Shown here piece by piece: positions 1 to 32,000 of a DNA stretch of 32,000 nucleotides. Every line of letters starts with the position of its first letter. The first letter of the stretch is position 1. Made by a program: the position numbers and the translations under genes. The notes beneath the pieces were generated by a model. It did no database searches and was not told the origin of the DNA. It worked only from the letters and a program-made list of their open reading frames with translations. Source of the DNA: Myxococcaceae bacterium (lineage in GTDB: Bacteria > Myxococcota > Myxococcia > Myxococcales > Myxococcaceae); NCBI GenBank assembly GCA_025459425.1, contig JALOQF010000014.1, positions 1 through 32,000 of the forward strand, written 5' to 3'.

Positions 1-1827
<1,827 letters not shown>

Positions 1828-1840
1828 GGGGAGTCGGCCT

Positions 1841-2896
1841 TCAGCGAATGGTGAGGGGCTCGAGGCCCGAGAGGCGCTGCGCTACCACCGGCGCGGGAAT
1901 CGCGTGCGGCGCGTGGGCTTTGACGGCGTTGGCGATGGCGGCGATGTGCGCGGGCGTCGAGCCGCAGCAGCCGCCGACGAGGTTGAGCCAGCCCTGCTTC
2001 GCGAAGTCGCCCAGCACGCGCGCCATGTCGTCGGGCGTCTCGTCGTAGCCGCCGAAGGCGTTGGGCAGGCCGGCGTTCGGGTAGCAGCTGACGTGGCACT
2101 CGGCGAGGCCGGCGAGCTCTTCGATGTACGGGCGCATGTCGTTGCCGCCGAGCGCGCAGTTGATGCCCACCGAGAAGGGCTTCGCGTGCCGAATCGACGC
2201 GTAGAACGCCGCGATGGTCTGGCCCGAGAGCGTGCGGCCCGAGCGGTCGGTGATGGTGACCGACACCATGACGGGCACGCGCCGGCCGAGCGCCTCGAAG
2301 ACGCCCTCGATGGCGAAGAGGGCCGCCTTGGCGTTGAGCGTGTCGAAGATGGTCTCGACGAGGAGCGCGTCGACGCCGCCCTCCATCAGCGCGTGCACCT
2401 GCTCGGTGTATGCGGTGACGACCTGCTCCCACGTGACGGCGCGGAAGTCGGGGCGGTTCACGTCGGGAGACAGCGACAGCGTGCGGTTGAGCGGGCCGAT
2501 GGCGCCGGCGACGAAGCACCGGCGCCCCGGCGTCTTCGCCTCGGCCTTCTCGACGGCCCGCTTCGCGCACGCCACGGCGGCGAGGTTCAGCTCGCGCACG
2601 AAGGGCTCGAGCTTGAAGTCGGCCTGGGCGACGGTGGTGGCGCCGAAGGTGTTCGTCTCGATGACGTCGGCGCCGGCCTCGAGGTACTGGGCGTGAATCG
2701 ACTCGATGATGTCGGGCCGGGTGAGGCACAGCACGTCTGAGTTGTTCTTCAGCTCGTGCGGGTGGTCCTTGAAGCGCTCGCCGCGGTAGTCGGCCTCGGT
2801 GGGCTTGTAGGTCTGCACCATCGAGCCCATGGCGCCGTCGAGAATGACGATGCGCTCCTGGAAGAGTCGTTCGAAGGCCTGGCTGCGGGTCGTCAT
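1841..2896 (-). CDS. metH: Methionine synthase MetH, N-terminal polypeptide (homocysteine S-methyltransferase domain only)
   Basis: Track ORF 1841..3007, trimmed to the internal ATG at 2896 ([28 protein letters not shown]...) with GGAG about 9 nt upstream. Hcy-domain hallmarks are present: [18 protein letters not shown] and VGGCCGSTP (Zn-ligand Cys). It ends ...SGLEPLTIR*, which is the interdomain linker position of single-chain MetH. Confidence 0.9.
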
Positions 2897-2918
2897 GGAA
2901 GGCTCCGGTGAAGTGACG

Positions 2919-3848
2919 TCAGGCGCGCGCCTCTTTGGCGGGCCGGCGGGCGGCGCGGGCGGGCCGCGACGCGGTGAGGAGGAACGCGCGGAACGGCGAG
3001 CCGCCATCGCGCGGCGTGGGCGTGAGCTGCAGGTCGACGAAGCCGGCCGCGCGCAGGGCGCTCTCGAGGCCGTGGGGCTCGAAGCCGAGGTGCTGGTGGC
3101 CCAGGCGCGACTTCACCCAGGCCTCCTGGTGCGGCATCAGCTCGAGCACGACGAGCTTGCCGCCAGGGACCAGCACCCGCGCGGCTTCGTGCAGCACCGC
3201 CGCCGGGTCGGCCACGTGGTGGAGGCTCTGCGAGATGACGACGAGGTGCTGGCGGCCCACCGAGCGCGGCAGGGCCTCGAGGTCGCCCTCGACGAAGGTG
3301 ACGTTGTCGCGCTTGTCACGCGCCAGCCGGCCGCGCGCCTGCTCGAGCGCCGCGCCGCTCTTGTCGACGGCGGTGACGTGCCGGGCCCAGCGCGCGAGCT
3401 CGGCCGTCAGCACGCCGGAGCCACACCCGAAGTCGGCCACGTCGAGCTTCGGGAGCAGCGACGACAGCGCCGACGCCCAGAGCAGCCAGGACTGCCCGGG
3501 CTCGAGCAGCTTCTCGTTGAGGGTGTGCCGGTCTTCACGACGGCGGAGCAGCTCGGTCAGGCGCGCCTGGTCGCCGTGGGGGTCGTCGCCCTCCCTCGCC
3601 AGCCGGATGAGCGGCCAGCGTGGGTCCGACGCGTCGACGGCGAGGGAGTAATACGTGTAGCCGCCCTGCCGCTCCTCGCGGATGAGCTCGAGCCCCTTGA
3701 GCTTCGCCAGGTGGTGCGACACCGACGACTGGGCCACGCCGATGAGCGAGACGACTTCCGACACGTTCAGCGTGGCCGAGGCCACCAGCCGCAAGATGCG
3801 CAGCCGCGTCGGGTCTCCCAGGGCGCTGAAGGTCTCGGACAGCTCCAT
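2919..3848 (-). CDS. ArsR-family wHTH fused to a SAM-dependent methyltransferase-fold domain (SahR-like regulator of methionine/SAM-cycle genes)
   Basis: This is the 3' 309 codons of track ORF 2919..5003, starting at MELSETFSALGDPTRLRILRLVASATLNVSEVVSLIGVAQSSVSHHLAKLKGLELI (ArsR/SmtB HTH). That is followed by VADFGCGSGVLTAELA...VLVPGGKLVV (class I MTase motifs I and post-I). It lies 22 nt upstream of the metH N-terminal ORF on the same strand. Confidence 0.8.
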   Translation of the reverse strand: MELSETFSALGDPTRLRILRLVASATLNVSEVVSLIGVAQSSVSHHLAKLKGLELIREERQGGYTYYSLAVDASDPRWPLIRLAREGDDPHGDQARLTELLRRREDRHTLNEKLLEPGQSWLLWASALSSLLPKLDVADFGCGSGVLTAELARWARHVTAVDKSGAALEQARGRLARDKRDNVTFVEGDLEALPRSVGRQHLVVISQSLHHVADPAAVLHEAARVLVPGGKLVVLELMPHQEAWVKSRLGHQHLGFEPHGLESALRAAGFVDLQLTPTPRDGGSPFRAFLLTASRPARAARRPAKEARA

Positions 3849-10761: not shown

Positions 10762-11586
10762 ATGCAGCTCCACGTCGACCTCGTCACCGCGCCGAACGCG
10801 ACGCCCTCGCGGGCGTTCCTCTTTCTCCACGGCATTCTGGGCCAGGGCACCAACCTGCGAACGCTGGCGCGGCGCTTCGTCGAGGCGCGGCCGACGTACC
10901 AGGCGGTGCTCGTCGACCTGCGCGCCCACGGCGCCTCCCAGGGCGTCGAAGGCGAAGACTCGGTGGTGACGGCGGCGGGCGACGTGGCGCAGACGGCGAA
11001 GGCCCTGCCGCTGCCGGTGACGGGCGCCTGCGCGCACTCGTTCGGTGGAAAGGTGACGATGCTGCTGGCCGAGCGCCTCGACGGGCTCGAGCACCTCGTC
11101 ATCCTCGACTCGGGGCCGGGCGCACGCACCGACTTCCGCGGCTCGGAGCTGACGATGAAGGTGCTGTCGACGCTCGAAGACGCACCGGCGCGGTTTCCTT
11201 CACGCGAGGCCTTCGTCGCGCACCTCGGCACCGCCGGCATCGAGCGCGGCATCGCGACGTGGCTGGGCATGAACCTCGACCGCGGCGACGACGGGTTCCG
11301 CTTCACCCTGTCGCTCGCCCGCATCCGCGCGCTGCTGGCCTCGTACTTCGCCACCGACTGCTGGCCGGTGCTCGAGCGGCTGGCCCTCGACGCAGGCCCG
11401 GCGTTTCACCTCGTCATCGGCGCGCGCTCGAAGGTGTTCGACGCCCACGAGCGGGAGCGGGCCGAGGCGCTGGCGGCCCGCTCAGGTGGGCGCTGCACCG
11501 TCGACGTGTTGCCGACGGGCCACTGGGTGCACGTCGACGACTTCGAGGGCACCGTGCGGGCGCTGCTGTCACGTGTTCCGGCGTGA
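10762..11586 (+). CDS. Alpha/beta hydrolase
   Basis: ATG at 10762, preceded by AAGGAG (10746-10751). The protein reads MQLHVDLV...RAFLFLHGILGQGTNL (oxyanion HG motif), AHSFGG (nucleophile elbow GxSxG-like) and C-terminal LPTGHWVHVD (catalytic His region). Confidence 0.85.
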   Translation: MQLHVDLVTAPNATPSRAFLFLHGILGQGTNLRTLARRFVEARPTYQAVLVDLRAHGASQGVEGEDSVVTAAGDVAQTAKALPLPVTGACAHSFGGKVTMLLAERLDGLEHLVILDSGPGARTDFRGSELTMKVLSTLEDAPARFPSREAFVAHLGTAGIERGIATWLGMNLDRGDDGFRFTLSLARIRALLASYFATDCWPVLERLALDAGPAFHLVIGARSKVFDAHERERAEALAARSGGRCTVDVLPTGHWVHVDDFEGTVRALLSRVPA

Positions 11587-11649
11587 GCCTGGCGCTGGGG
11601 GTGCGGAGTCAGGGACACGCCGCGACCGGCGTGAGCGAGCCGGGACTCG

Positions 11650-12096
11650 TCACCGCTCCCATGTCAGCAGCGACAACGGGTACATCGGCCCGTCGAGGGC
11701 GAGGTCGACGAACTGCTTCACGTCGCGGCCGGCGAGCGCCACCGTCGGCACCTGCTCGCGGGTGAACCACTGCGCGGCGAGCGAGTGCTCGTCGGCCTGC
11801 AGCTTGAGCGGCCGGTCGTCGGCGGGCCGGGCCACCACGCAGATGCGCAGCCGGGCCTCACCGCCGTCGACGAGCGTGTGCTGCACGCGCAAGAGGCCCT
11901 CGAGCTCGACGGGAACGCCCACCTCGGCGTGGGCCATGCGGCGCGCGGCGGCCAGCAGCTCTTCGCCGGGTTCGACGCGGCCACCCGGCAGCGACCAGGC
12001 CACGCCGTCCTTCGGGTCGCGCACCAGCGCCACCTTGCGCCCGGACTTCACGACGACGAGGGCGAACGTCCACGTGGGCGTCGGGGTGCGGGCCAT
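11650..12096 (-). CDS. Nudix-fold protein with a degenerate Nudix box
   Basis: Track ORF of 148 aa. The box region is GRVEPGEELLAAARRMAHAEVGV (11914-11982). It matches the spacing of GX5EX7REUXEEXGU, but REUXEE reads RMAHAE. Confidence 0.8.
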   Translation of the reverse strand: MARTPTPTWTFALVVVKSGRKVALVRDPKDGVAWSLPGGRVEPGEELLAAARRMAHAEVGVPVELEGLLRVQHTLVDGGEARLRICVVARPADDRPLKLQADEHSLAAQWFTREQVPTVALAGRDVKQFVDLALDGPMYPLSLLTWER

Positions 12097-12283
12097 GCCG
12101 CCACACTGCGCCGCACAGGCCCGTCATTCAACCGCCGAAGGGGGCGCGCCCGCTGCTTCGTGGTGACAGCGTTCGCCGCGCGCCAGCCGTCGGGCGCGAA
12201 GACGGACCAGCGGGTGCCACCGCAGGGCTCGGGGGGCTCCATCGTCGCCGCTGCCCGTTCCCCCTGTGGTAACGAGGCGCCCC

Positions 12284-12721
12284 ATGGACGAACTCACGCA
12301 ACGCACCAACGCGCTCAAGTCGATGCCGCTGCTCGCCGACCTTCCCCACGGCGAGCTCGAGAAGCTCGCGAAGCGGCTGTCGGTGGAGCAGCACCGCACC
12401 GGCTCCGTCATCATCAAGGAAGGCTCGAGCGGCGCGGCGGCGTACTTCATCGTCTCGGGCAGCTGCGAGGTGCGGCGCGAGGGCAAGCGCGGCAGCAAGC
12501 GCGTCAACGTCATCAAGCGCGGCGACTGCTTCGGCGAGCTGTCCATCATCAACCCGGCCCCGCGCTCGGCCACCGTGGTGGCGCTCGAGACCGTCGACCT
12601 GCTGGTGCTGAACGAGGCCGACTTCCGCGACGCGCTGCGGTCGAACCGCTCGATGGCGCTGCAGCTCGTGCGCGCGCTCGCCAAGCGGCTCCAGGCACGG
12701 GAAGACGAGTTCACGGGATGA
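12284..12721 (+). CDS. Stand-alone cyclic-nucleotide-binding (CAP effector-type) domain protein
   Basis: Track ORF 12266..12721 starts at a GTG. I prefer the ATG at 12284, with GAGG 7 nt upstream. Motifs: LEKLAKRLSVEQHRTGSVIIKEG...YFIVSGSCEV...GDCFGELSIINPAPRSATVVA (phosphate-binding cassette FGE...PRSAT). There is no HTH or other output domain. Confidence 0.85.
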   Translation: MDELTQRTNALKSMPLLADLPHGELEKLAKRLSVEQHRTGSVIIKEGSSGAAAYFIVSGSCEVRREGKRGSKRVNVIKRGDCFGELSIINPAPRSATVVALETVDLLVLNEADFRDALRSNRSMALQLVRALAKRLQAREDEFTG

Positions 12722-13737
12722 TTTCGACCTCGACCACGCCTTCCTGCACCATCCGCCAGCTCCTCGAGGACACGCAGTACGACCTCAAGCTCGAGCTGGT
12801 GGCGGGTGGCCCCGGCCTCGACCGGCGCATCTCGAGCTCGCGCGTGCAGAAGCCGGGCCTCGCGCTCACCGGCTTCACCGAGCACCTGCACCCCGAGCGG
12901 CTGCAGATCTTCGGCAACACCGAGATCTCGTACCTGCGCACCCTCTCGCCGGAGCAGCAGGTGGCGGTGCTGAAGAAGGTGTTCGAGTCGAACCTGGCGG
13001 CGGTGGTGGTGACGAAGGGCCTCGAGGTGCCGGCGCCACTCCACGAGGGCTGCGACCGCACGAACCTCACGCTCATGCGCACGCCGCTCATCTCGTCGGC
13101 GTTCATCTCGCAGGTGCAGTCGTTCCTCGAAGAGGCGCTGATGGCGTCGGGCAGCCTGCACGGCGTGCTCGTCGACGTCTTCGGCGTCGGCGTGCTGCTG
13201 CTGGGCAAGTCGGGCATCGGCAAGAGCGAGATTGCGCTGGACCTCGTGATGCGCGGGCACCGCCTGGTGGCCGACGACATCGTGAACCTCGTGCGCAAGC
13301 AGGCCGACGTGTACGGGCACGGCAACGAGATGATTCAGCACCACATGGAGATTCGGGGGCTGGGCATTCTCAACATCAAGGACCTCTTCGGCGTGGCGGC
13401 GGTGCGCGACCGGAAGAAGATCGAGCTCGTCATCGAGCTGGTCGAGTGGACGCCGACGGCCGAGTACGACCGCCTGGGCCTCGAGCAGGAGTCGATGAAC
13501 ATTCTGGGCGCCGAGCTGCCGCACGCGGTGGTGCCGGTGCGGCCGGGGCGCAACATGACGACCATCGTCGAGGTGGCGGCGCGCAACCACCTGCTCAAGC
13601 TGCGCGGCCACAACTCGGCGCAGGAGTTCGCGGAGCGCCTGTCACAGGCCATCTCGCGCCAGGGCACACCGTCGTCGGGCCGCGCGCAGGTGCCCGCGCC
13701 GAGGCCGACGCCGCAGTACGAAGAAGACGTCGAGTAG
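12718..13737 (+). CDS. hprK: HPr kinase/phosphorylase
   Basis: This is the 3' 339 codons of track ORF 11785..13737, from the ATG at 12718. That ATG overlaps the cNMP-binding gene's stop (ATGA). Motifs: GVGVLLLGKSGIGKSEIALDLV (P-loop) and HHMEIRGLGILNIKDLFG (HprK signature). Confidence 0.92.
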   Translation: MISTSTTPSCTIRQLLEDTQYDLKLELVAGGPGLDRRISSSRVQKPGLALTGFTEHLHPERLQIFGNTEISYLRTLSPEQQVAVLKKVFESNLAAVVVTKGLEVPAPLHEGCDRTNLTLMRTPLISSAFISQVQSFLEEALMASGSLHGVLVDVFGVGVLLLGKSGIGKSEIALDLVMRGHRLVADDIVNLVRKQADVYGHGNEMIQHHMEIRGLGILNIKDLFGVAAVRDRKKIELVIELVEWTPTAEYDRLGLEQESMNILGAELPHAVVPVRPGRNMTTIVEVAARNHLLKLRGHNSAQEFAERLSQAISRQGTPSSGRAQVPAPRPTPQYEEDVE

Positions 13738-13740
13738 CGC

Positions 13741-14159
13741 TCAGGGCCCACGCGGGGCGCGCGCCCACCACGACAGCGCCGCCTCGAGGTTCTCCCGCGC
13801 GCGCGCGCTCAGCGCCTCACCCAGCCCGAACTGCCACCCCCGAATCGCGAGCACCTTCGCGGGCGGCGCCTTCTCGCCGGTGAGCTGCTCGAACACGTGC
13901 AGCAGCGCGCCGGGCGAGAGGTGGTGCGTCGTGAGGCTCGCCGCGCCGTCGGGCATCACCTCGCGCACCTCGAAGGGCTCGGCCGCGTCCACCGCCGCGT
14001 CGACGAAGAGCACCTGGTCGCGGCCGACGAGGTCGAGCGCGTGCTCCGGCTGCAGCTGGTAGTCGACGACGAGCTCGACGTCGTCTCGCCGCGCGGCCTC
14101 TCCGACGAACGTCCGCCCCCCCGCGTGCCGACGCCCACCACCGCTCCGCGCGCGTCCAC
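13741..14159 (-). CDS. hoxW: Hydrogenase maturation endopeptidase (HoxW/HybD family), reading frame interrupted at a G7 run (possible pseudogene, indel error or frameshift site)
   Basis: The protease-like sequence RTFVGEAARRDDVELVVDYQLQPEHALDLVGRDQVLFVDAAV...SLTTHHLSPGALLHVFEQL...VLAIRGWQFGLGEALS is in the frame ending at 13741. The expected N-terminal strand (GAVVGVGT, compare hhhGhGN) is encoded only in the hoxH frame. The two frames meet at the C7/G7 run 14116-14122. The protease frame has no ATG/GTG/TTG start that would give a proper N-terminus. The coordinates assume the GTG at 14159 plus a -1 shift (419 nt). Confidence 0.55.
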
Positions 14160-15542
14160 CACCGTCACCTCGAGCGGCATGCGCCCCATCGCGTGCGTCG
14201 CGCACGACAGGCACGGGTCGAACGCGCGCACCGCCACCTCGACGTGGTTGAGCAGGCCCTCGGTCACCTCGTGGCCGTCCAGGTACCGGCGCGCCACCGA
14301 GCGGATGGCCTCGTTCATCGCCTGGTTGTTGTTGGTGGTGCTGACGATGAGGTTGCAGCGGGAGACGAGGTCGTCGTCGCCCACCTCGTAGTGGTGAATC
14401 AACGTGCCACGCGGCGCCTCGATGATGCCGATGCCTTCCCGCTGCCGGGCGCCCGTCGAGACGAGGTCGCCGTGCAGCAGGCCATCGTCGTGGAGCAGCC
14501 GCTCGAGGTCTTCGGCGGCGTGGAGGAGCTCGATCATCCGCGCCCAGTGGAAGGCGAGCGGCGCGTGGGTGATGCCCGGGTACGCCGCGCGGAAGTCCCG
14601 GCGGGCCGCCTCGGCGAGCGGCGTCGGCAGGCGGTCGCACAGCTGCACGCGCGCCAGCGGGCCCACCTTGTACCAACCGACGTCCGGCCCCAGCCGCTCG
14701 AGGTAGGGGAACTTCATGTACGACCAGGGCCGCACGTCTTCACGAATCAGCGCCTGGTAGTCGGCCGCCTCGACGCCATCGAAGAGCACCCGCCCCTCGG
14801 CGTCGACGCCGCGCAGGCCACCGTCGTAGAGGTCGAGCGCGCCGTCGGAGGCCACCAGCCCGAGCAGGTTCGAGGGCACCGCGCCGAAGCCCCGATGCCG
14901 GGCCTCGTTCACCTCGGTGAGGCGCCGCGCGAGCGCGACGGCCTCGAGCGCCCAGGCCTTCACCTGCGGCACCTGCGAGAGGAACGTGTCGCGCGCCTCG
15001 AGCGCCAGGTGCTTGTTCACGCCCCCCGGCACCGCGCCCGTGCCGTGAATGCGCTTGCCGTAGACGGCCTCGAGCACCTGCTGACCGAACTTGCGCAGCA
15101 GCACCCCCATCTTCGCGATGTCGGGGTGCTGCGCCACCAGCCCGATGAGGTTGCGCCGCGAGACGTCGGAGTCGAAGCCGAACAGCAGGTCGGGCGAGGC
15201 GAGGTGGAAGAAGTGCAGCGCGTGCGACTGGAGCATCTGCCCCGAGTGCATGAGCCTCCGGAGCTTCACCGCCGACGGTGGAGGCACGCCGCCCACCACC
15301 TGGTCGAGCGCCTTGGCCGCGCACAGGTTGTGCGACACCGGGCAGATGCCGCACAGCCGCTGCACCACCACCGGCACTTCCCAGTACGGGCGCCCGACGA
15401 TGAAGGCCTCGAAGCCGCGGAACTCGACGATGTGCAGCCGCGCCTCGTGCACCTTCCCCGCCTCGTCGAGGAGCAACGTCACCTTCCCGTGGCCTTCGAC
15501 GCGCGAGAGCGGCTCGATGGCGATGCGGCGCAGGTCAGTCAT
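13956..15542 (-). CDS. hoxH: [NiFe] hydrogenase large subunit, NAD(P)-linked bidirectional type (HoxH, group 3d-like)
   Basis: Track ORF of 528 aa. It contains LSRVEGHGKV, the N-terminal Ni-Fe ligand motif RLCGICPVSH and the C-terminal DPCLSCATH (His codon at 14193-14195). Homology-like sequence ends around ...MPLEVTVVDARGAVVG. The remaining tail, out to 13956, is Ser/Thr/Arg-rich and is the out-of-frame reading of hoxW. Confidence 0.92.
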   Translation of the reverse strand: MTDLRRIAIEPLSRVEGHGKVTLLLDEAGKVHEARLHIVEFRGFEAFIVGRPYWEVPVVVQRLCGICPVSHNLCAAKALDQVVGGVPPPSAVKLRRLMHSGQMLQSHALHFFHLASPDLLFGFDSDVSRRNLIGLVAQHPDIAKMGVLLRKFGQQVLEAVYGKRIHGTGAVPGGVNKHLALEARDTFLSQVPQVKAWALEAVALARRLTEVNEARHRGFGAVPSNLLGLVASDGALDLYDGGLRGVDAEGRVLFDGVEAADYQALIREDVRPWSYMKFPYLERLGPDVGWYKVGPLARVQLCDRLPTPLAEAARRDFRAAYPGITHAPLAFHWARMIELLHAAEDLERLLHDDGLLHGDLVSTGARQREGIGIIEAPRGTLIHHYEVGDDDLVSRCNLIVSTTNNNQAMNEAIRSVARRYLDGHEVTEGLLNHVEVAVRAFDPCLSCATHAMGRMPLEVTVVDARGAVVGVGTRGGGRSSERPRGETTSSSSSTTSCSRSTRSTSSAATRCSSSTRRWTRPSPSRCAR

Positions 15543-16074
15543 AGCGGAGCGCTCCTCTCGGCAACGTCGGCTCGCGCCCGTCGAGCAGCGCGGTGAGGAA
15601 GGCCCAGAACGCGTCGGCCGGCGGTGGGCAGCCCGGCAGGAAGTAGTCGACGCGAACGAACTCGTGCACCGGCCGAACCTTGTCGAAGAGCCGCGGCAGC
15701 TCGACGTCGTCAGGCAGCGCGCGCCGGCCGAGGCCCGGCTCGGCCATGTAGACGGTGTGCAAGAGCTCGCTCACGTCGAACTGGTTGCGCTGGGCGGGGA
15801 GGCCTCCATTGATGGCGCAGGCGCCCACCGACACCAGCAGGCGGCACTGGTCGCGGAACTCCTTCAGCACGTGCAGGTTGTCTTCGTTGCACACGCCACC
15901 CTCGATGAGCCCTACGTCGCAGGCGCTGGCGTGCTTCACGTCGGTGAGCGGAGACCGGTCGAACGTCACGCGCTCGAGCAGCGGGAGGATGCGCTCGTCG
16001 AGGTCGAGGAACGACATGTGGCAGCCGAAGCAGCCGGCGAGCGACGTGGTGGCCAGCTTCACCTTGCCCGTCAT
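15535..16074 (-). CDS. hoxY: [NiFe] hydrogenase small subunit (HoxY)
   Basis: From the ATG at 16074 (179 aa): MTGKVKLATTSLAGCFGCHMSFLDLDE...GGVCNEDN...VGACAINGG...DYFLPGCPP (proximal 4Fe-4S Cys pattern of short group-3 small subunits). It has an ATGA overlap with hoxU and an 8-nt overlap (ATGACTGA) with the hoxH start. Confidence 0.9.
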   Translation of the reverse strand: MTGKVKLATTSLAGCFGCHMSFLDLDERILPLLERVTFDRSPLTDVKHASACDVGLIEGGVCNEDNLHVLKEFRDQCRLLVSVGACAINGGLPAQRNQFDVSELLHTVYMAEPGLGRRALPDDVELPRLFDKVRPVHEFVRVDYFLPGCPPPADAFWAFLTALLDGREPTLPRGALRYD

Positions 16075-16781
16075 GGCTCCTCCTTGCCTTCGACCTGCGT
16101 GCGCGGCGGCGCGACGTCGTGGGGCCGCTGGCCGATGGGCGTCGAGAAGCCGACGCGCTTCTTCAAGATGACGCCGACCGGGCACACGCGCGCCGCGACG
16201 TCGTCGACGGACATGCCGGTGTCCGCCAGCCGGCCCGACTCGGCGTTGACGATGAGGTGCTTGTGCAGCCCACGCCCCGAGAGCGCGAAGACGTGCTTGT
16301 GGTCGACGTCCGCCGAAGCGCGCACGCACAGCTCGCAGAGGATGCAGCGGTTGAAGTCGAGGAGCAGGTCGGGGTGCGACGCATCGACCGGGCGCTGCGG
16401 CGACTCGTGCGCGAAGCCTGCCGAGGTGACGCCGAGGTCGGTGCCGAGGGTCTGCAGCGTGCAGCCGCCGGACTTCTCGCACCCGGGGCAGAAGTGGTTG
16501 CCCTCGACGAGGAGCATCTGCACGAGCGCCTGCCGGTCGGCGTGGAGCGACGGCGTCTGGCTCTCGACGGTGAGGCCGGCCGCAGCCCGGGTGGTGCACG
16601 CCGCCATCGGGCGCCCGTTCACCAGCACCGTGCAGACGCGACACGAGCCGTGAGCCGGGAAGTCCGGGTGCGCGCAGAGGAAGGGAATGTACGTGTGCGC
16701 AGCGCGCGCGGCCTCGATGAGCGTCTGGCCCTCGTCGAACTCGACCGGCACACCGTCGAGGGTGAAGCGCGGGCGGCTCAT
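16071..16781 (-). CDS. hoxU: Diaphorase Fe-S subunit HoxU (NuoG N-terminal-like)
   Basis: Track ORF of 236 aa. Motifs: CAHPDFPAHGSCRVCTV...AAC (2Fe-2S), HFCPGCEKSGGC (His-ligated 4Fe-4S), CILCELCVRAS and RVCPVG (4Fe-4S). Confidence 0.9.
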   Translation of the reverse strand: MSRPRFTLDGVPVEFDEGQTLIEAARAAHTYIPFLCAHPDFPAHGSCRVCTVLVNGRPMAACTTRAAAGLTVESQTPSLHADRQALVQMLLVEGNHFCPGCEKSGGCTLQTLGTDLGVTSAGFAHESPQRPVDASHPDLLLDFNRCILCELCVRASADVDHKHVFALSGRGLHKHLIVNAESGRLADTGMSVDDVAARVCPVGVILKKRVGFSTPIGQRPHDVAPPRTQVEGKEEP

Positions 16782-18520
16782 CGGCGGGCTCCTTCGTGGC
16801 GGCCGTTCATGAGGGCCGCCTCGACGTCGAAGGACGGCTCGAACGAGGCCGACAGTCGCCGCCGCACGTCTTCGGGGAACTTGCGCAGCCAGTGCCGGTA
16901 CGCGTTGGGCGCCATCACGCCGAGGCCGCAGTGCGACGTGTCTCGGAGCAGGTGGGCGAGGGTCTCGAGCTCGGTCAGCTCGACGCTCGAGCCACGGCCC
17001 TGCTGGAGCTTCGAGAGGCTGCGTGCCGCGACGTGCGTCCCCACCCGGCAGGGCGTGCAGAAGCCGCAGCTCTCGTGCGCGAAGAAGCGCGCGAAGTTGA
17101 GCGCCACCTCGAGCAGGTCACGCCGGGGCCCGAAGACGGCGATGGCTCCGGCGCAGGCGAGGTCTTCGAAGCACAGCCGGCGGTCGAACTCGAACGGGGC
17201 CACCAGCTCACCGGAAGGGCCGCTCACCTGCACGGCCCGGGCGTCGACCCCGCCTGCGAGCGCCAGCACGTCTCGGAGCGTCACGCCCCACGGCACCTCG
17301 TAGACGCCGGGGCGCTCGACGTCGCCAGCGACCGACAGGAGCTTCGAGCCGGTGGACTTCTCGGTGCCGAGCGCGCTCCACGCCTCGACGCCGTTCGCGA
17401 AGACGACGGCCACGTCGGCGTACGTCTCGACGTTGTTCACGATGGTGGGCCGACCGAGGTAGCCATTCGTCACCGGAAAGGGAGGCCGGTGCCGCGGGAC
17501 GCCGCGCTTGCCCTCGAGGGACTCGATGAGCGCGGTCTCTTCACCGCAGACGTACGCCCCCGCGCCCAGGTGCAGGTCGATGTCGAAGTCGAAGCCCCGC
17601 TCGCCGAGAATGCCCTGGCCGAGCAGGCCCTCACGACGACGCCGCTCGAGCACCCCGCGCAGGTGCCCTTCGAGGAACGTGTACTCACCCCGGAGGTAGA
17701 TGAAGCCCGTCGTCGCCTGCGTACAGTGCGCGGCGACGGTCATGCCCTCGACGACGAGGTCGGCGCAGGTGGCGAGGAGCACCCGGTCCTTGAAGGTGCC
17801 CGGTTCGCCCTCGTCGGCGTTGCACACCACGACGCTGTCGCCGGGCGCGGTGCGGCAGGTCTCCCACTTGGTGACGACGGGAAAGCCCGCGCCGCCGCGC
17901 CCACGGAGCCGCGCGGCCTCGAGCGTCTTCGTCCGTGCGTCGTGGCCCTGCTCGAGCACGCGGCGCAGGGCGGCCCCGGGCGCGAGCCGAGACGAGAGGA
18001 CCGGACCTCGCTGCCGAATGCCTTCGTCGACGTGCAGCAGCGCCTCCGGCCAGCGGTCGACGGGCGTCCCTGCTTCGATGCAGGCCACCACGGCGTCGAG
18101 TCGTTCCCCGACGACGCGTGAAATCGCGCGCCCGTTCACCAGAATCGCGGGCGGCTGGTCGCACAGCCCGGTGCACGACGTGCGGTCGAGCGAGACGACG
18201 CCATCGGTGCGAACGTGGCCGGGCTCGACGTGGAGCCGCTCGGAGAACGCCCGGAGCGTGTCGTGACTGCCCGCGAAGACGTCGGTGATGTTGTCCGAGA
18301 CGAGCACACGGAAGCGGCCGACGGGCTCGAGGTGCAAGAAGGCGTAGAACCCGGCCACGCCCTCGACATGCGCGCGTGGCAGACCGAGCCCGTTGGCCAC
18401 CTCGGTGAGCACACGCGGTGGGAGCCACTGGCCGCTGGCCGCCTGAACGTCTCTCAGAAGCTGGAGGAGCCGCGTGGGGTCGCGCTGGTGCGCGTCGAGG
18501 AGCTCGGACACCGTGCGCAT
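16778..18520 (-). CDS. hoxF: Diaphorase NAD(P)H/FMN subunit HoxF with a fused NuoE/HoxE-like N-terminal domain
   Basis: Track ORF 16778..18583 begins at a TTG. I prefer the ATG at 18520 (MRTVSELLDAHQRD...). Motifs: GRGGAGFPVVTKWE (FMN), CNADEGEPGTFKDR (NADH) and ESCGFCTPCRVG (4Fe-4S). The N-terminal thioredoxin-like domain has SCTGLCDQPPAILVNG. It has an ATGA overlap with hoxU. Confidence 0.9.
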   Translation of the reverse strand: MRTVSELLDAHQRDPTRLLQLLRDVQAASGQWLPPRVLTEVANGLGLPRAHVEGVAGFYAFLHLEPVGRFRVLVSDNITDVFAGSHDTLRAFSERLHVEPGHVRTDGVVSLDRTSCTGLCDQPPAILVNGRAISRVVGERLDAVVACIEAGTPVDRWPEALLHVDEGIRQRGPVLSSRLAPGAALRRVLEQGHDARTKTLEAARLRGRGGAGFPVVTKWETCRTAPGDSVVVCNADEGEPGTFKDRVLLATCADLVVEGMTVAAHCTQATTGFIYLRGEYTFLEGHLRGVLERRRREGLLGQGILGERGFDFDIDLHLGAGAYVCGEETALIESLEGKRGVPRHRPPFPVTNGYLGRPTIVNNVETYADVAVVFANGVEAWSALGTEKSTGSKLLSVAGDVERPGVYEVPWGVTLRDVLALAGGVDARAVQVSGPSGELVAPFEFDRRLCFEDLACAGAIAVFGPRRDLLEVALNFARFFAHESCGFCTPCRVGTHVAARSLSKLQQGRGSSVELTELETLAHLLRDTSHCGLGVMAPNAYRHWLRKFPEDVRRRLSASFEPSFDVEAALMNGRHEGARR

Positions 18521-18684
18521 GAGTCGGTTGGATGCACGCGCCGCGCCGCCATGTACGAGCCCACGCCGGTCGGCCCGACGCAAGGCTTGCGTCAGGGCGC
18601 TTCACCAGACCGGGACGGCGCAAGAAGCGGGCGCGGGAGACGCACGGCGCCAAACGCGGTGGCTGCTGGCACGATGCGGCCGCG

Positions 18685-24996: not shown

Positions 24997-25005
24997 TTGG
25001 CGTGG

Positions 25006-27680
<2,675 letters not shown>

Positions 27681-27684
<4 letters not shown>

Positions 27685-28877
27685 CCCGTTCCCTCCTGTT
27701 GCGCGCGCTCGTCGTGGTGAGCCTCGGCCTCGCGCCCGCTGCCCGGTCGGCGCCCGACGCGTGCGGCGGCGTGAAGCTCGAAGCCGGCGCGATTCGCCTC
27801 GGCAAGCCGCTCACCGACGCCTTCGTGAAGACGGCCGACGGGAAAGCCTGCCTCGGCGACGTGGTGAAGGAGGTCGAGCGCAACCGCCTCGTGCGCGCGG
27901 TGACGGTGGCCGCCATCGTGTCGGACGCGGAGCGCGCGAGCGGCAAGGGCCTCGACGCGGCGAAGGCCGTCGCGGCGGCGCTGGTGGACGCGGGCCTGCC
28001 GAAGAACCGCGTCTTCAGCCTCGCGCCCGCGCCGCAGCGCACCGACGTGCCCGGCCTGTCGCTGCGCTACGTCGAGCGCGCGCCGGAAGACGTCGTGGCC
28101 CGGGTGGCCGCCGCGGGCGGGAGCGTGTTCCTCGGCGCCGACGAGCGCGCCCTCAAGCCCGCCGAGCCCGGCATGCCGGTGCTGGTGAACGAGCTGGTGA
28201 AGACGGGCCCCAACGCGCGCGCCACCATCGCCATGAAGGACGGCAGCACCGTCGAGGTGAAGCCCGAGTCGACCATCAAGCTCGCCGTCATGCAGTTCCC
28301 CGCCGGTGGGGAGCGGCAGGTGAAGATCGAGATTCTGGGTGGCGGCATCGTGGCCGACGTGAAGAAGGCCACCCAGCTCGGCCGCTTCGAGGCCTCGACG
28401 CGCGTGGCGGTCGCCTCGGTGCGCGGCACGCAGTTCCGGCTCGGCGTCTCGGAAGACAGCGGCGCGCGCCTCGAGACCCTCGAGGGAGTCGTCGGCGTCG
28501 CGCCGGCGAACGACCCGTCGGCCACGCCGGTCGAGGTGAGCGCGGGCCAGGGCACGCTGGTGAGCGCCGAGGGCAAGGTCGAGCCGCCGAGCGCGCTCCC
28601 GGCCGAGCCCGTGCCCACCGCGCCGCTGAAGGGGGCGCTGGGGGCCGACGCGCGGCTCGACTGGCAGGCCGTCACCGGCGCCACCAGCTACCGCGTCGAG
28701 CTGGCGCGCGACCCCGACTTCCTCGTCGACGCGAAGAGCGCTTCGACCGAGGCCACCACGCTGTCGTGGCCCGAGGCGCTCGCGAAGGGCAAGTGGTTCT
28801 GGCGCGTCACCGCCGTCGACGCGAAGGGCTTCTCGGGCCCCTCGTCGAAGATCTACGCCTTCACGGTGGGCAAGTGA
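27681..28877 (+). CDS. Periplasmic FecR-domain protein with a C-terminal Fn3/Ig-like domain
   Basis: Track ORF of 398 aa with an ATGA overlap on the OmpA stop. The signal is MTRSLLLRALVVVSLGLAPAARS|A. The FecR-type segment is VLVNELVKTGPNARATIAMKDGSTVEVKPESTIKL...ASVRGTQFRLGV. The C-terminus reads LDWQAVTGATSYRVELARDPDF...WFWRVTAVDAKGFSG (Fn3-like). There is no TM anchor or anti-sigma domain. Confidence 0.85.
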
Positions 28878-31798
28878 CGAAGCCCGGCCGCCTCGACCTT
28901 CCGGGCCTTGGGCTCGTGGGAGGCGCGCTCGCCCTCTGGGTGATGCGCGACGAGGCGGCGTGGGCGTTGACGGCGCGCTTCAAGGAGGTGGGGTTTCCTC
29001 CGCTGGCGCTGTTGGTGCGCGCGAGCGTCGCGCTGCTCGGCGCGGCGGGCCTCTTCCGGGTTCGCGACACCCTGCGGGCGCTCGGCGCGGGGGCGCTGGG
29101 TGTGCTCGACGCGGCCGAGGCGCGGCTCTCGGCGCTGCCCACCACCCGGGGCCGCGTGCTGCGGTCGCTCGCCCTCACGCTCGTCGCCTCGGGCCTCACG
29201 CTGACGCTCTTCGAGGCCACGCCGCTGGGGCCGATGCTCGAGACGCGCGTGCTCGACCTCTTCTTCCGCCTGCGCTTCCCCGAGCGCTCGCAGGCCGAGC
29301 TCGCGACGGGCCAGGCGCTCCCCTCGGCCAACCCCCAGCCCGACGTGGTGGTGGTGGCCGTCGACGACGACACCATCTCGCACCTGGGTTGGCCGCTCCC
29401 GCGCGTCCACTACGCGCGGCTGCTCGAGCGGCTCTCGACGGCAGGCGCCCGCCGGGTAGCCTTCGACGTCGCCTTCGTGGACGCGTCGCGTGAGCACCCG
29501 GAGTGGGACACGGCGCTGGGCGCGGCAGCCCGGGCGGCGCCCACCTCGGCCTTCACCTTCACCGTCGCACGGCTGGGCACCGACGCGCGGCCGACCATGT
29601 CGGAGCGCGCGCTGGCGGCGCTCGACGCCAACTCGATTCCGCTCCACCCCTCGGCCGAGCGGCTGCCCCCGTACCCTGCGCTCGTGGGCGGAGACGTGGC
29701 GCCGCAGCCGGTGCTCGACGCGCTGCTCGAGTCGGGCCGGCCGCTGGCGATGGCGAACGTGCTGCTCGACTCGGGTGACGACCTCTTGCGGCACTCGCTC
29801 GTGGTGGCGCGCCTGTCGGGCCGGCTGCTGCCCTCGCTGTCCTTGCGGCTCGCGGCCGAGGAGCTCGGTGTGCCGCTCTCCTCCATCCGGGTGGAGCCGG
29901 GCTCGCACGTCGACCTCGGGGGCCAACGGCGCATTCCCATCGACGCGCTCGGGCGCACGCTGGTGCGCGCCCAGGGCCGGCACGACACGCGCGGCCAGGG
30001 ACCGTTCCAGTACGTGTCGATGTGGTCGCTCTTGCGCACCGACGTGACGCTCACCCTGGCCGGCAACCCGCTCGGAGAAGACCAGCGCTTCGTGCTCGAC
30101 GAGCAGACGCGCGTGACGAAGGACGGGGTGGTGGTGCCGGCGGCCGAGGTCGAGGGCCTCGTGCACGAGGGGGCGTTCCTCGCAGGCCGGGCCCGCTACT
30201 CGACGGACCCGGGCCGCATCGTCGAGCTGGCGTTCTCGTCGACGGCGCCGCGGCCGCCAGAGCCCGACTTCGAGCTGCTCGACGAGCACGTCATGCGCTT
30301 CGGCACGCTGGTGGCCTCGACGAAGCGCAACCAGCTCGACCCGGCGCTCTTCACCGGCAAGCACGTGCTGGTGGGCTCGACGGCGCTGGCCGCCGCCGAC
30401 CTGCGGAACACGCCGCTGGGTGAAGCGCCCGGCGTCGAGCACCACGCCACGATGCTGGCGAACATCCTCCACCAGGACTTCTTCACCGAGACGCCCCGGT
30501 GGGCCGGGGTGCTCTTCGTGCTCGCGGCGGCGCTCCTGGCGGCGCTCGGGGGCCTGTCGTTGTCGAGCGAGCTGGCGCTGCTGTCGACGGCGCTGCTGCT
30601 GCTCGCGTGGCTCACCGCCTCGTATGGCTCGTTCGTCTCGGGGGTGCGGGTGCCCGCCGTCGCGCCGGCGGTCTCGGCCTCGCTCAGCGCGCTCCTGGTG
30701 CTCGTGCTCGGCGCGCGCGCGGCCCGGCTCGCCCGTCGCAAGGCCGAGTCCGAGCGCGAGTTCGTTCGCCAGACGTTCGGCCGCTACCTCACCGAGCAGG
30801 TGGTGCAGCAGCTCCTCGACTCACCCGACGGGCTCGCGCTCGGCGGCAAGCGCGGCTTCGTCACCATCATGATGACCGACCTGCGGGGCTTCACGAGCAT
30901 GTGCGGCACCATGGAGCCCGAGGCGGTGGTGAAGCTGCTCAACCACTACCTCGAGGCGATGACGCGCATCATCACCCGCTACGGCGGCACCATCGACGAG
31001 TTCATCGGCGACGCCATTCTCGTCGTCTTCGGCGCCCCGGTTCCGCTCGAGCACCCCGAGCTCCGCGCGGTGGCCTGCGCCATCGAGATGCTCAACGTCA
31101 TGCCCGACATCAACGCGTGGAACGCGAAGCACGGCCTGCCCGCCGTCGAGATGGGCATCGGCATTCACAGCGGCGAGGTGGTGCTGGGGAACATCGGCTC
31201 CGAGCTGCGCGCGAAGTACGGCATCGTCGGCGCCACCATCAACCTCACCTCGCGCGTCGAGTCGTACACCGTCGGCGGCCAGGTGCTGCTCTCGGAGACG
31301 ACGCGCGAGCGGTGCGGAGACGCGCTCACCGTCGGCGCCTCGCAGGTGGTGTCACCCAAGGGCGTGAAGGGCACGATGACCATCTTCGAGGCGCTCGGCG
31401 TGGGCGCGCCCTTCGAGGTGTCGCTCACCTCGGCCGCCGAGGCGCTGGCGCCGCCCAACCGCGTGCTCGAGTTCCGCTACGCGCTCATCAAGAACAAGCA
31501 GGTGTCCGACGAGGTGCGCGTGGCGCGGGTCGAGGCCTTGTCCGACCGCGGGCTCGAGCTGAAGGTCGACGAAGCGCTCCCCACGCTGAGCGACCTGAAG
31601 CTCGAGCTGCTCGAAGACGGCGCCCCGCGCCCCGGCGAGCTCTACGGCAAGGTGCTCAAGGCCGACGTGCGGCCGAACGTCGTCTACCTGCGCCTCACCT
31701 CGGTGCCGAACGAGCTGCGCCCCGTGCTCGAGGCCGCGCGCTCCGTCGTCGCCCCTCCGTCCGTGCCGGTCGCGCCGTCTGCCCTGGTGTCGTCATGA
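28874..31798 (+). CDS. CHASE2 sensor / class III nucleotidyl cyclase (predicted guanylate cyclase) with an extra C-terminal domain
   Basis: This is the 3' 974 codons of track ORF 27761..31798, from the GTG at 28874. That GTG overlaps the FecR stop (GTGA); an alternative ATG lies at 28943. The CHASE2 hallmark is VVVVAVDDDTISHLGWPLPRVHYARLLERLSTAGARRVAFDVAFVD. Three TM helices span roughly 30480-30720. The cyclase core reads FVTIMMTDLRGFTS...GGTIDEFIGDAILVVFGAP...IGIHSGEVVLGNIGS...KYGIVGATINLTSRVES. Confidence 0.9.
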   Translation: MTKPGRLDLPGLGLVGGALALWVMRDEAAWALTARFKEVGFPPLALLVRASVALLGAAGLFRVRDTLRALGAGALGVLDAAEARLSALPTTRGRVLRSLALTLVASGLTLTLFEATPLGPMLETRVLDLFFRLRFPERSQAELATGQALPSANPQPDVVVVAVDDDTISHLGWPLPRVHYARLLERLSTAGARRVAFDVAFVDASREHPEWDTALGAAARAAPTSAFTFTVARLGTDARPTMSERALAALDANSIPLHPSAERLPPYPALVGGDVAPQPVLDALLESGRPLAMANVLLDSGDDLLRHSLVVARLSGRLLPSLSLRLAAEELGVPLSSIRVEPGSHVDLGGQRRIPIDALGRTLVRAQGRHDTRGQGPFQYVSMWSLLRTDVTLTLAGNPLGEDQRFVLDEQTRVTKDGVVVPAAEVEGLVHEGAFLAGRARYSTDPGRIVELAFSSTAPRPPEPDFELLDEHVMRFGTLVASTKRNQLDPALFTGKHVLVGSTALAAADLRNTPLGEAPGVEHHATMLANILHQDFFTETPRWAGVLFVLAAALLAALGGLSLSSELALLSTALLLLAWLTASYGSFVSGVRVPAVAPAVSASLSALLVLVLGARAARLARRKAESEREFVRQTFGRYLTEQVVQQLLDSPDGLALGGKRGFVTIMMTDLRGFTSMCGTMEPEAVVKLLNHYLEAMTRIITRYGGTIDEFIGDAILVVFGAPVPLEHPELRAVACAIEMLNVMPDINAWNAKHGLPAVEMGIGIHSGEVVLGNIGSELRAKYGIVGATINLTSRVESYTVGGQVLLSETTRERCGDALTVGASQVVSPKGVKGTMTIFEALGVGAPFEVSLTSAAEALAPPNRVLEFRYALIKNKQVSDEVRVARVEALSDRGLELKVDEALPTLSDLKLELLEDGAPRPGELYGKVLKADVRPNVVYLRLTSVPNELRPVLEAARSVVAPPSVPVAPSALVSS

Positions 31799-32000
31799 GA
31801 GCCTGCCTCGTCGTCGCGTTCTTCGTCCTGTCGGGCTGCAGCTGGCTCACCGCGCCACCGAGCGCGTGCAGCGATGGCGTCGTGAATGGTGAAGAGACCG
31901 ACGTCGACTGTGGCGGCCCCGGGTGTGGGCCCTGCGCTGGCGGGCTGGCGTGCCTCGAGGCCGACGACTGCGCTTCGGGCGCGTGCGTGCTCAACCGGTG
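31795..32000 (+). CDS. Cys-rich lipoprotein, 5' part only (runs off the window)
   Basis: Not in the track because it is open to the window edge. The ATG at 31795 overlaps the cyclase stop (ATGA). My translation is MRACLVVAFFVLSGC|SWLTAPPSACSDGVVNGEETDVDCGGPGCGPCAGGLACLEADDCASGACVLNR..., with lipobox LSGC and a GEETDVDCGG...C..C....C....DC.SG.C motif. Confidence 0.6.
   Translation, partial: MRACLVVAFFVLSGCSWLTAPPSACSDGVVNGEETDVDCGGPGCGPCAGGLACLEADDCASGACVLNR

Follow-up and report, generated by a model that had tools for sequence, protein, structure and literature searches.

Which cyclic nucleotide does the receptor cyclase of an uncultured myxobacterium make? The enzyme in question, a CHASE2 cyclase of 974 amino acids, is encoded in a 32,000-nucleotide stretch of DNA from Myxococcaceae bacterium (GenBank assembly GCA_025459425.1, contig JALOQF010000014.1, positions 1 to 32,000 of the forward strand), the whole of which we call the window. 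Bacterial signalling by 3',5'-cyclic GMP (cGMP) rests on few studied enzymes: Cya2, the Gcy proteins of Rhodospirillum centenum, and XC_0250 of Xanthomonas. A first-pass annotation of the window had called the protein a guanylate cyclase on account of Glu and Gly at the two positions that specify the purine base. Our analysis supports that call as a prediction, with Cya2 as the closest solved relative and the same Glu/Gly pocket in both proteins. On our favoured reading the protein is a homodimeric receptor cyclase of class III and of the Cya2 type, and most likely converts GTP to cGMP; we put the probability of this reading at about 0.7.

Base-specifying residues and the predicted product

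The cyclase open reading frame (ORF; 28874-31798, +) has a third-codon-position G+C content (GC3) of 0.96. The placement of its GTG start is confirmed by an ortholog (P0001) of exactly 974 amino acids that is 94% identical over 100% of the length. The encoded domains follow each other in the order membrane helices, CHASE2, three membrane helices, FGRY transducer element, catalytic domain, and PilZ-fold domain (Table 1). In a Kyte-Doolittle scan, hydrophobic segments were located at residues 43-61 and 95-113 before CHASE2, and at 545-613 after it. The FGRY motif of the transducer element has been described for Cya2 (PMC5995499). Residues 662-815 scored 89.7 bits with the Pfam family PF00211 (Guanylate_cyc), for which the cutoff is 21.9 (E = 2.4e-25). 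Judged by this profile and by the residues described below, the protein belongs to the class III nucleotidyl cyclases.

Reading the codons directly, we found both metal-binding Asp residues where the first-pass annotation had placed them: Asp669 at GAC 30878-30880, within TDLRGFT, and Asp713 at GAC 31010-31012. The Asn/Arg pair that it had reported is likewise present as the transition-state pair Asn790/Arg794, and the phosphate-binding Arg671 and Lys829 are also in place, aligned with R450 and K608 of Cya2. The codons that it gave for the Glu and the Gly are correct too (Table 1). This full catalytic set (D669, D713, R671, N790, R794, and K829) is invariant among the aligned orthologs. When compared with the eight active-site residues listed for Cya2 in a table of PMC6005667, the protein matched at 8 of 8 positions: D669=D448, R671=R450, E709=E488, D713=D492, G783=G562, N790=N569, R794=R573, and K829=K608.

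A phmmer search with the catalytic domain against PDB sequences returned 6fht (E = 4e-73), an engineered phytochrome-Cya2(E488K) fusion, as top match, followed by the Cya2 catalytic domain itself (2w01, E = 2.8e-63) and then by the adenylate cyclases CyaB and CyaC. Identity to 2w01 over the catalytic domain was approximately 53% (BLASTP). In the phmmer alignment DEFIGD pairs with DEFMGD of Cya2, KYGIVGA with KYGVVGA, and, over a longer stretch, KYGIVGATINLTSR with KYGVVGAQVNLTYR. K781-Y782-G783 falls on K560-Y561-G562, and Lys781 thus corresponds to Lys560. Glu709 and Gly783, the two residues on which the earlier call was based, align with Glu488 and Gly562 of Cya2, and with Lys and Thr of CyaB (3r5g: DKFVGD, DYTIIG) and CyaC (1wc0: DKFVGD, DFTAIG). 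The hand alignment behind that call was not offset; neither Lys/Asp nor Lys/Thr was found at the specificity positions of our protein in the comparison with Cya2, CyaB, and CyaC.

Cya2 (sll0646) of Synechocystis sp. PCC 6803, a homodimeric cyclase linked to CHASE2, strongly prefers GTP as its substrate (PMC6005667). The first-pass annotation had correctly named it as a CHASE2-linked guanylate cyclase with Glu and a small residue, the pair being Glu-Gly (PMC6005667, PMC4215837); animal guanylate cyclases have Glu-Cys/Ser and adenylate cyclases Lys-Asp/Thr (PMC6005667). Inactivation of cya2 in Synechocystis reduces cGMP and does not lower cyclic AMP (cAMP). The selectivity of the enzyme comes from faster turnover of GTP, not from tighter binding (PMC4215837). 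The single change E488K turns Cya2 into an adenylate cyclase (PMC5995499), and a Glu/Gly graft (K101E/D157G) gave the adenylate cyclase Ma1120 its best guanylate cyclase activity (PMC4215837). Because the one exchange switches Cya2 and the other works in Ma1120, Glu/Gly in a Cya2-like scaffold soundly predicts a preference for GTP. By homology to Cya2, two symmetric active sites would form at the dimer interface; in each, Glu709, presumably supported by Lys781, would hydrogen-bond the guanine base, and the small Gly783 would leave room for it. In Cya2 the Glu is supported by a Lys, for which the review specifies no position (PMC6005667).

The pair is well conserved. A database search yielded 77 full-length orthologs at 48-94% identity, all with CHASE2 and the cyclase and all named as Myxococcaceae, Archangium, or Myxococcales metagenome-assembled genomes (MAGs). 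Glu/Gly is present in 76 of them and Glu/Ser in the remaining one, and such retention over this range of identity argues for selection on the pair, not chance. More distant CHASE2 cyclases (33-38% identity) carry Lys/Thr at the specificity positions. A scan of species-representative genomes (one genome per species) brought up at least 538 relatives, one of its two patterns containing the Glu (EFIGDAIL), which favours Glu-type cyclases; residues were tabulated for a subset of them. Nineteen of these relatives are full-length orthologs, all from MAGs, 18 labelled as Myxococcota lineages (uncultured Myxococcaceae, Archangiaceae, or 'Myxococcales') and one as Pseudomonadota (L019). The others are 50-60% identical in the catalytic domain only, and come from Cyanobacteria, Alphaproteobacteria (Methyloceanibacter), Acidobacteriota, Desulfobacterota, Leptospiraceae, Methylococcaceae, Rhodothermales, and other taxa.

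When 1.84 billion cluster representatives were searched exhaustively with HMMER, 6547 matched at E <= 1e-30. The best 150 representatives, one of which is the engineered 6fht chain, were compared together with our protein and Cya2. Glu/Gly was present in 123 of these 152 sequences, and Glu with Gly, Ala, or Ser in 141. N-terminal sensors were recorded in 74 representatives (REC 22, GAF 9, HAMP 8, CHASE2 7, PAS 7). By these counts the Glu/Gly catalytic module is a large and phylogenetically broad clade, consistent with the suggestion made in 2008 that Cya2 represents a bacterial subgroup (PMC6005667).

A number of observations weigh against cGMP as the product, or against the pathway that we propose around it. 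Synthesis of cGMP by this protein and its close orthologs is a prediction from their residues. Cya2 is an imperfect proxy: its Tyr572, which is reported to strongly enhance guanylate cyclase and not adenylate cyclase activity (PMC4215837), is replaced by Ser793 in our protein, and this Ser is invariant in the 24 aligned orthologs. Cya2 also has similar affinity for ATP and GTP (PMC4215837). Because Tyr572 is Ser793 here, the GTP selectivity of the myxobacterial enzyme may be lower, and mainly for this reason we hold our confidence in the guanylate cyclase reading below about 0.75. The genes of candidate cyclic-nucleotide receptors, described in the next section, were seen in related contigs only, the window ending 200 nucleotides past the cyclase stop. 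The phosphate-binding cassettes of these receptors (RSAS, RVAT) are uninformative, and the R-T-A signature of cGMP binding was looked for in them and not found; the linked receptors therefore do not separate cGMP from cAMP. Finally, signal input through the FecR and OmpA proteins is proposed from gene order.

The rival best served by these observations is an enzyme of dual specificity, or mainly an adenylate cyclase, in which the absence of the Cya2 tyrosine would make ATP turnover comparable and the physiological product would be cAMP. The invariant Ser793, the reported specific effect of Tyr572 on guanylate cyclase activity (PMC4215837), a selectivity in Cya2 that is kinetic and not a matter of affinity, and linked cyclic-nucleotide-binding domains without a cGMP-specific cassette would all fit such an enzyme, and other CHASE2 cyclases, such as CyaD1, CyaD2, and CyaK of Sinorhizobium meliloti, use cAMP. 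However, Glu is invariant at the first position in our protein and its orthologs, and it is the more distant CHASE2 cyclases that have Lys; in Cya2 the change from Glu to Lys is precisely what creates adenylate cyclase activity (PMC5995499). Ser at the Tyr572 position is compatible with guanylate cyclase activity, since animal guanylate cyclases also carry Ser before the catalytic Arg (N-L-T-S-R, as quoted in the first-pass annotation). Among the 152 sequences this position is occupied by Ser in approximately 78, by Ala in approximately 50, and by Tyr in 6. Ser or Ala, which together account for roughly five sixths of the sequences, is usual in the Glu/Gly clade, and on these counts Tyr572 is a peculiarity of Cya2 that is atypical for the clade. 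We consider a dual or mainly cAMP-producing enzyme unlikely.

In a second rival the protein is a receptor that resembles a cyclase but has little or no catalytic activity, and it signals through contacts with proteins, made for example by its PilZ-fold domain. That domain is without nucleotide-binding motifs and could be an interaction module, and the isolated catalytic core of Cya2 has low activity (PMC5995499). This reading is nevertheless very improbable: the two Asp, Arg671, Asn790, Arg794, and Lys829 are all in place and invariant across the orthologs, for which reason we rejected a pseudo-enzyme, and cyclic-nucleotide receptor genes are linked to the cyclase in ortholog loci. That the product is another nucleotide, such as a cyclic pyrimidine or cyclic IMP, is hardly credible: class III-like cyclases with altered base-pocket residues can in general yield other cyclic nucleoside monophosphates (PMC10249747), but the base pocket here is identical to that of Cya2, an enzyme assayed as GTP-preferring (PMC6005667), and no defence-system context is present in the window.

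We also considered whether the cyclase gene could account for a guanylate cyclase activity described from Myxococcus xanthus in the 1980s, reportedly by Devi and McCurdy in 1984. The link is unsupported, as none of the 19 full-length orthologs in species-representative genomes is titled M. xanthus. A literature search for myxobacterial guanylate cyclases found nothing relevant.

Operon partners, linked candidate receptors, and the C-terminal tail

The cyclase gene is the third of four genes on the plus strand that are joined by 4-nucleotide overlaps and encode an OmpA/TSP3 protein, a FecR protein, the cyclase, and a Cys-rich lipoprotein (Table 1). In the first of these proteins, some 330 N-terminal residues that no Pfam family matched are followed by thrombospondin type 3 repeats, and a peptidoglycan-binding OmpA domain forms the C-terminal end. 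The FecR protein begins with a signal-like sequence and is weakly similar to LipL45/Lsa33 of Leptospira. In tblastn searches all 18 ortholog loci for which upstream DNA is present showed the order OmpA/TSP3, FecR, cyclase, and in each of them a FecR homolog (45-94% identity) lies directly upstream of the cyclase. Searches with the FecR and OmpA proteins of the window gave almost no match beyond the myxobacterial loci, and in a cyanobacterial Cya2-type locus a DUF928 gene (L022, 6413-7213) is directly upstream of the CHASE2 cyclase; on both grounds the FecR/OmpA partnership is, as far as these sequences go, specific to the myxobacterial clade. The periplasmic partner that goes with CHASE2 may differ from lineage to lineage.

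Two further observations concern the 895-residue OmpA-domain protein. Its thrombospondin type 3 repeats, which are calcium-binding, are numerous, and its best NCBIfam match is the Myxococcus outer-membrane exchange protein TraB, at 173 bits far below the 700-bit cutoff.

Downstream, the fragment of the fourth gene is 70% identical to the start of a 450-residue protein of locus L001 with STIG1-like repeats (PF04885, E = 6.7e-15), and a lipoprotein gene follows the cyclase in 15 of 19 ortholog loci. Most ortholog loci have two consecutive genes for STIG1-like Cys-rich lipoproteins at this place (10922-12271 and 11755-13446 in L001); PF04885 is a plant stigma protein family.

After the two STIG1-like genes, ortholog loci encode a TPR protein with two cyclic-nucleotide-binding domains. 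In many cases they additionally encode another TPR protein, which has a single domain of this kind, and a fusion of a cyclic-nucleotide-binding domain to GGDEF. Besides the two loci in Table 1, cyclic-nucleotide-binding genes were found in L004, L005, L008-L010, L012-L014, and L016. Fifteen ortholog loci extend for at least 3.6 kb downstream, and 12 of these have one or more such genes; the three loci that have none (L015, L018, L019) belong to the most divergent subclade. The GGDEF fusion has an intact GGDEF motif in seven ortholog loci (L004, L005, L007, L010, L012, L013, and L016). This protein matches PDB entry 5h5o, a cyclic-nucleotide-binding domain labelled "diguanylate cyclase" (E = 2e-11), on which a literature search found nothing relevant. 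Outside the orthologs, cyclic-nucleotide-binding genes are near Cya2-like Glu/Gly cyclases in Acidobacteriota loci and one Leptospiraceae locus, and in a proteobacterial MAG (L045) one comes immediately after the gene of a CHASE2-Glu/Gly cyclase. These genes, some of them fused to GGDEF, were seen in L035, L040, L042, L045, L049, L054, L055, L057, L059, L061, and L078. Such linkage may be typical of the Glu/Gly clade as a whole, and the downstream genes support a cyclic-mononucleotide pathway.

The C-terminal tail (residues ~831-974) gave no direct Pfam match, and a profile search of the extension against PDB sequences found only an overlap with the end of the Cya2 core. PF07238 (PilZ) was matched weakly by 10 of 29 aligned family members (best E = 1.6e-4). 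An AlphaFold2 model of the tail, built on an alignment of ortholog proteins, has a core with a predicted local distance difference test score (pLDDT) above 90 and six to seven strands followed by a helix. The top Foldseek matches of this model in the PDB were all PilZ domains (Alg44, CeSA, PA0012, and BcsA), with probability 1.00 and template-modelling (TM) scores of up to 0.77 when normalised by target. As modelled, the extension has a PilZ fold. The motifs for binding of cyclic di-GMP (c-di-GMP) are absent: of the 139 family members, one has (D/N)xSxxG and 15 have RxxxR, the latter at no conserved position; our protein has RVLEFR and ALSDRG. The tail family has a conserved signature of its own (G-K, N-L-K, Y-(A/G)-K-V, and F-T-S-x-P), with conserved Lys, Lys, and Thr. 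Among the 152 compared sequences, 139 carry a homologous extension, and they include those of the cyanobacterial loci L053 and L077. The tail probably corresponds to the 118-residue C-terminal extension of Cya2, which strongly stimulates cyclase activity and has been called "structurally uncharacterized". A literature search found no paper that links the Cya2-type extension to PilZ.

From the conserved, translationally coupled operon we propose that an envelope signal would reach CHASE2 via the periplasmic FecR-domain protein and the OmpA/thrombospondin-repeat protein. The PilZ-fold tail would stimulate the catalytic core by intraprotein contacts, as the Cya2 extension does. If the gene content of related genomes holds for this one, cGMP would be read by the downstream-encoded cyclic-nucleotide-binding proteins, one of them fused to a GGDEF diguanylate cyclase, and would thereby be coupled to c-di-GMP as in Xanthomonas XC_0250/XC_0249. 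Gene order and fold would also accommodate a more far-reaching trans-envelope cGMP pathway. Here the OmpA/TSP3 and FecR proteins would gate CHASE2, the linked cyclic-nucleotide-binding proteins including the diguanylate cyclase would read the cGMP and convert the envelope signal from cGMP into c-di-GMP, and the clade-wide, non-canonical PilZ-fold tail with its invariant Lys/Lys/Thr would bind a ligand or partner as a new kind of regulatory module, tune the cyclase, and possibly close a feedback loop. This extended scheme is speculative, and we regard it as rather unlikely in its entirety.

Table 1. Features of the cyclase operon, with positions in the window, and cyclic-nucleotide-binding genes of two ortholog loci, with positions in those loci.
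Feature	Position	Strand	Basis or remark
Envelope protein, 895 amino acids, first operon gene	24997..27684	+	Pfam OmpA 2.9e-22, TSP_3 1.6e-17
Secreted FecR-domain protein, 398 amino acids, second gene	27681..28877	+	Pfam FecR 1.9e-15, residues 173-271
CHASE2 cyclase gene, 974 amino acids	28874..31798	+	Single intact ORF; GTG start overlaps FecR stop (GTGA)
CHASE2 extracytoplasmic sensor, residues 111-556	29204..30541	+	Pfam PF05226, E 9.6e-41
Three predicted membrane helices, residues 545-563, 567-585, 595-613	30506..30712	+	Kyte-Doolittle
Cyclase transducer element, FGRY motif F635 G636 R637 Y638	30755..30823	+	Sequence; invariant among orthologs
Class III cyclase catalytic domain, residues 655-852	30836..31429	+	phmmer vs 2w01, E 2.8e-63, query residues 26-223
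Glu709 codon GAG, first base-specifying position	30998..31000	+	Within DEFIGD; = Cya2 Glu488
Gly783 codon GGC, second base-specifying position	31220..31222	+	Within KYGIVGATINLTSR; = Cya2 Gly562
Predicted PilZ-fold beta-barrel and helix, residues ~858-956	31445..31741	+	AlphaFold2 model, Foldseek
Cys-rich lipoprotein, fourth gene, cut by window end	31795..32000	+	ATG overlaps cyclase stop (ATGA)
Cyclic-nucleotide-binding gene, locus L001	13468-14715		
Cyclic-nucleotide-binding genes, locus L007	13415-14749; 14756-16006 (-); 16061-17599 (-)		

Other features of the window

Elsewhere in the window, two ORFs that overlap in different frames divide the domains of methionine synthase between them (1-3007, -), with a homocysteine S-methyltransferase domain at 1844-3007 (-) and pterin-binding and B12-binding domains at 1-1881 (-), running off the window; the gene is either naturally split or frameshifted. 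An HPr kinase/phosphorylase ORF (11785-13737, +) encodes 650 amino acids with kinase domains only from residue 322, and has either a long N-terminal extension or a start codon set too far upstream. A NiFe hydrogenase large-subunit gene is found about 1.2 kb from a gene for a NuoF-like flavoprotein with 2Fe-2S thioredoxin-like, FMN-binding, and 4Fe-4S domains, and the region (13959-18583, -) looks like a soluble NAD-linked hydrogenase cluster. Long antisense or off-frame ORFs of up to 743 amino acids (25203-27434 (-), 28853-30472 (-), and others) were rejected as artefacts of the 71.5% G+C content; GC3 separates the true frames from them.

Comparison with known systems

If the Glu/Gly clade makes cGMP as Cya2 does, bacterial cGMP signalling would be much less rare than usually stated. 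Our survey joins the Glu/Gly module with its PilZ-fold tail to many sensor types (REC, GAF, HAMP, PAS, and CHASE2). The locus itself offers candidate input partners for CHASE2, namely the FecR and OmpA/TSP3 proteins and the Cys-rich lipoproteins, and related genomes offer candidate cGMP receptors that include a diguanylate cyclase with a cyclic-nucleotide-binding domain.

Burkholderia and Pseudomonas aeruginosa are known to pair FecR with CHASE2 in operons that encode histidine kinases (COG4254, PA4035-type). In these FecR(LysM)-CHASE2 operons, as in the myxobacterial one, the FecR-domain gene is directly upstream of the CHASE2 sensor. Their output, however, is a histidine kinase with a response regulator and not a nucleotide cyclase, and their peptidoglycan-binding module is a LysM on the FecR protein, whereas the myxobacteria have a separate OmpA-domain protein.

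In S. meliloti the CHASE2 adenylate cyclases CyaD1, CyaD2, and CyaK are activated through the outer-membrane protein NsrA and signal via cAMP. The idea is the same, that of an outer-membrane protein passing an external signal to a CHASE2 receptor cyclase, and a FecR-domain protein occurs in the regulon of that pathway. The differences are the cAMP output and NsrA itself, which is a beta-barrel protein and not an OmpA/TSP3 protein. An envelope relay into a CHASE2 cyclase is thus already a known idea, but not with cGMP output. The first-pass annotation had presented bacterial cGMP signalling as rare and was not aware of its characterisation in this kind of envelope module. The novelty was overstated: CHASE2 with a guanylate cyclase is the architecture of Cya2 itself, the Glu/Gly module is widespread, and both FecR-CHASE2 pairing and signalling from an outer-membrane protein to a CHASE2 cyclase are on record, although for histidine kinases and adenylate cyclases.

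The predicted coupling to c-di-GMP has its counterpart in Xanthomonas campestris, where XC_0250 is a guanylate cyclase and XC_0249 a cGMP-binding GGDEF diguanylate cyclase. Both systems link a class III cyclase, a guanylate cyclase in Xanthomonas and predicted to be one here, to a gene with cyclic-nucleotide-binding and GGDEF domains. XC_0250 is a soluble, TPR-linked cyclase and not a CHASE2 receptor, and XC_0249 binds cGMP, whereas for the myxobacterial GGDEF partner, known from ortholog loci outside the window, cGMP binding is predicted. The tail of our protein resembles canonical PilZ domains (PF07238; Alg44, BcsA, PA0012) in its predicted six- to seven-stranded barrel and following helix, and differs from them in that it is missing RxxxR and (D/N)xSxxG and has its own signature instead.

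The closest known system is Cya2. The two proteins have in common CHASE2, membrane helices, the FGRY element, the class III cyclase domain, and a C-terminal extension of approximately 120-140 residues, and they share the Glu/Gly pair, Lys560, both metal Asp, Arg450, the Asn/Arg pair, and Lys608 (Cya2 numbering). They differ at Tyr572 of Cya2, which is Ser793 in the myxobacterial protein, and in phylum, Cyanobacteria for Cya2 and Myxococcota for our protein. CHASE2 is much longer in the myxobacterial protein (residues 111-556) than in a cyanobacterial homolog (about 310 residues), and the partners are FecR and OmpA/TSP3 proteins in the one case and a DUF928 protein upstream of the cyclase in the other. 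The protein is a member of the known Cya2-type kind, found here in a lineage (uncultured Myxococcaceae/Archangiaceae) and an operon context that have not been described before.

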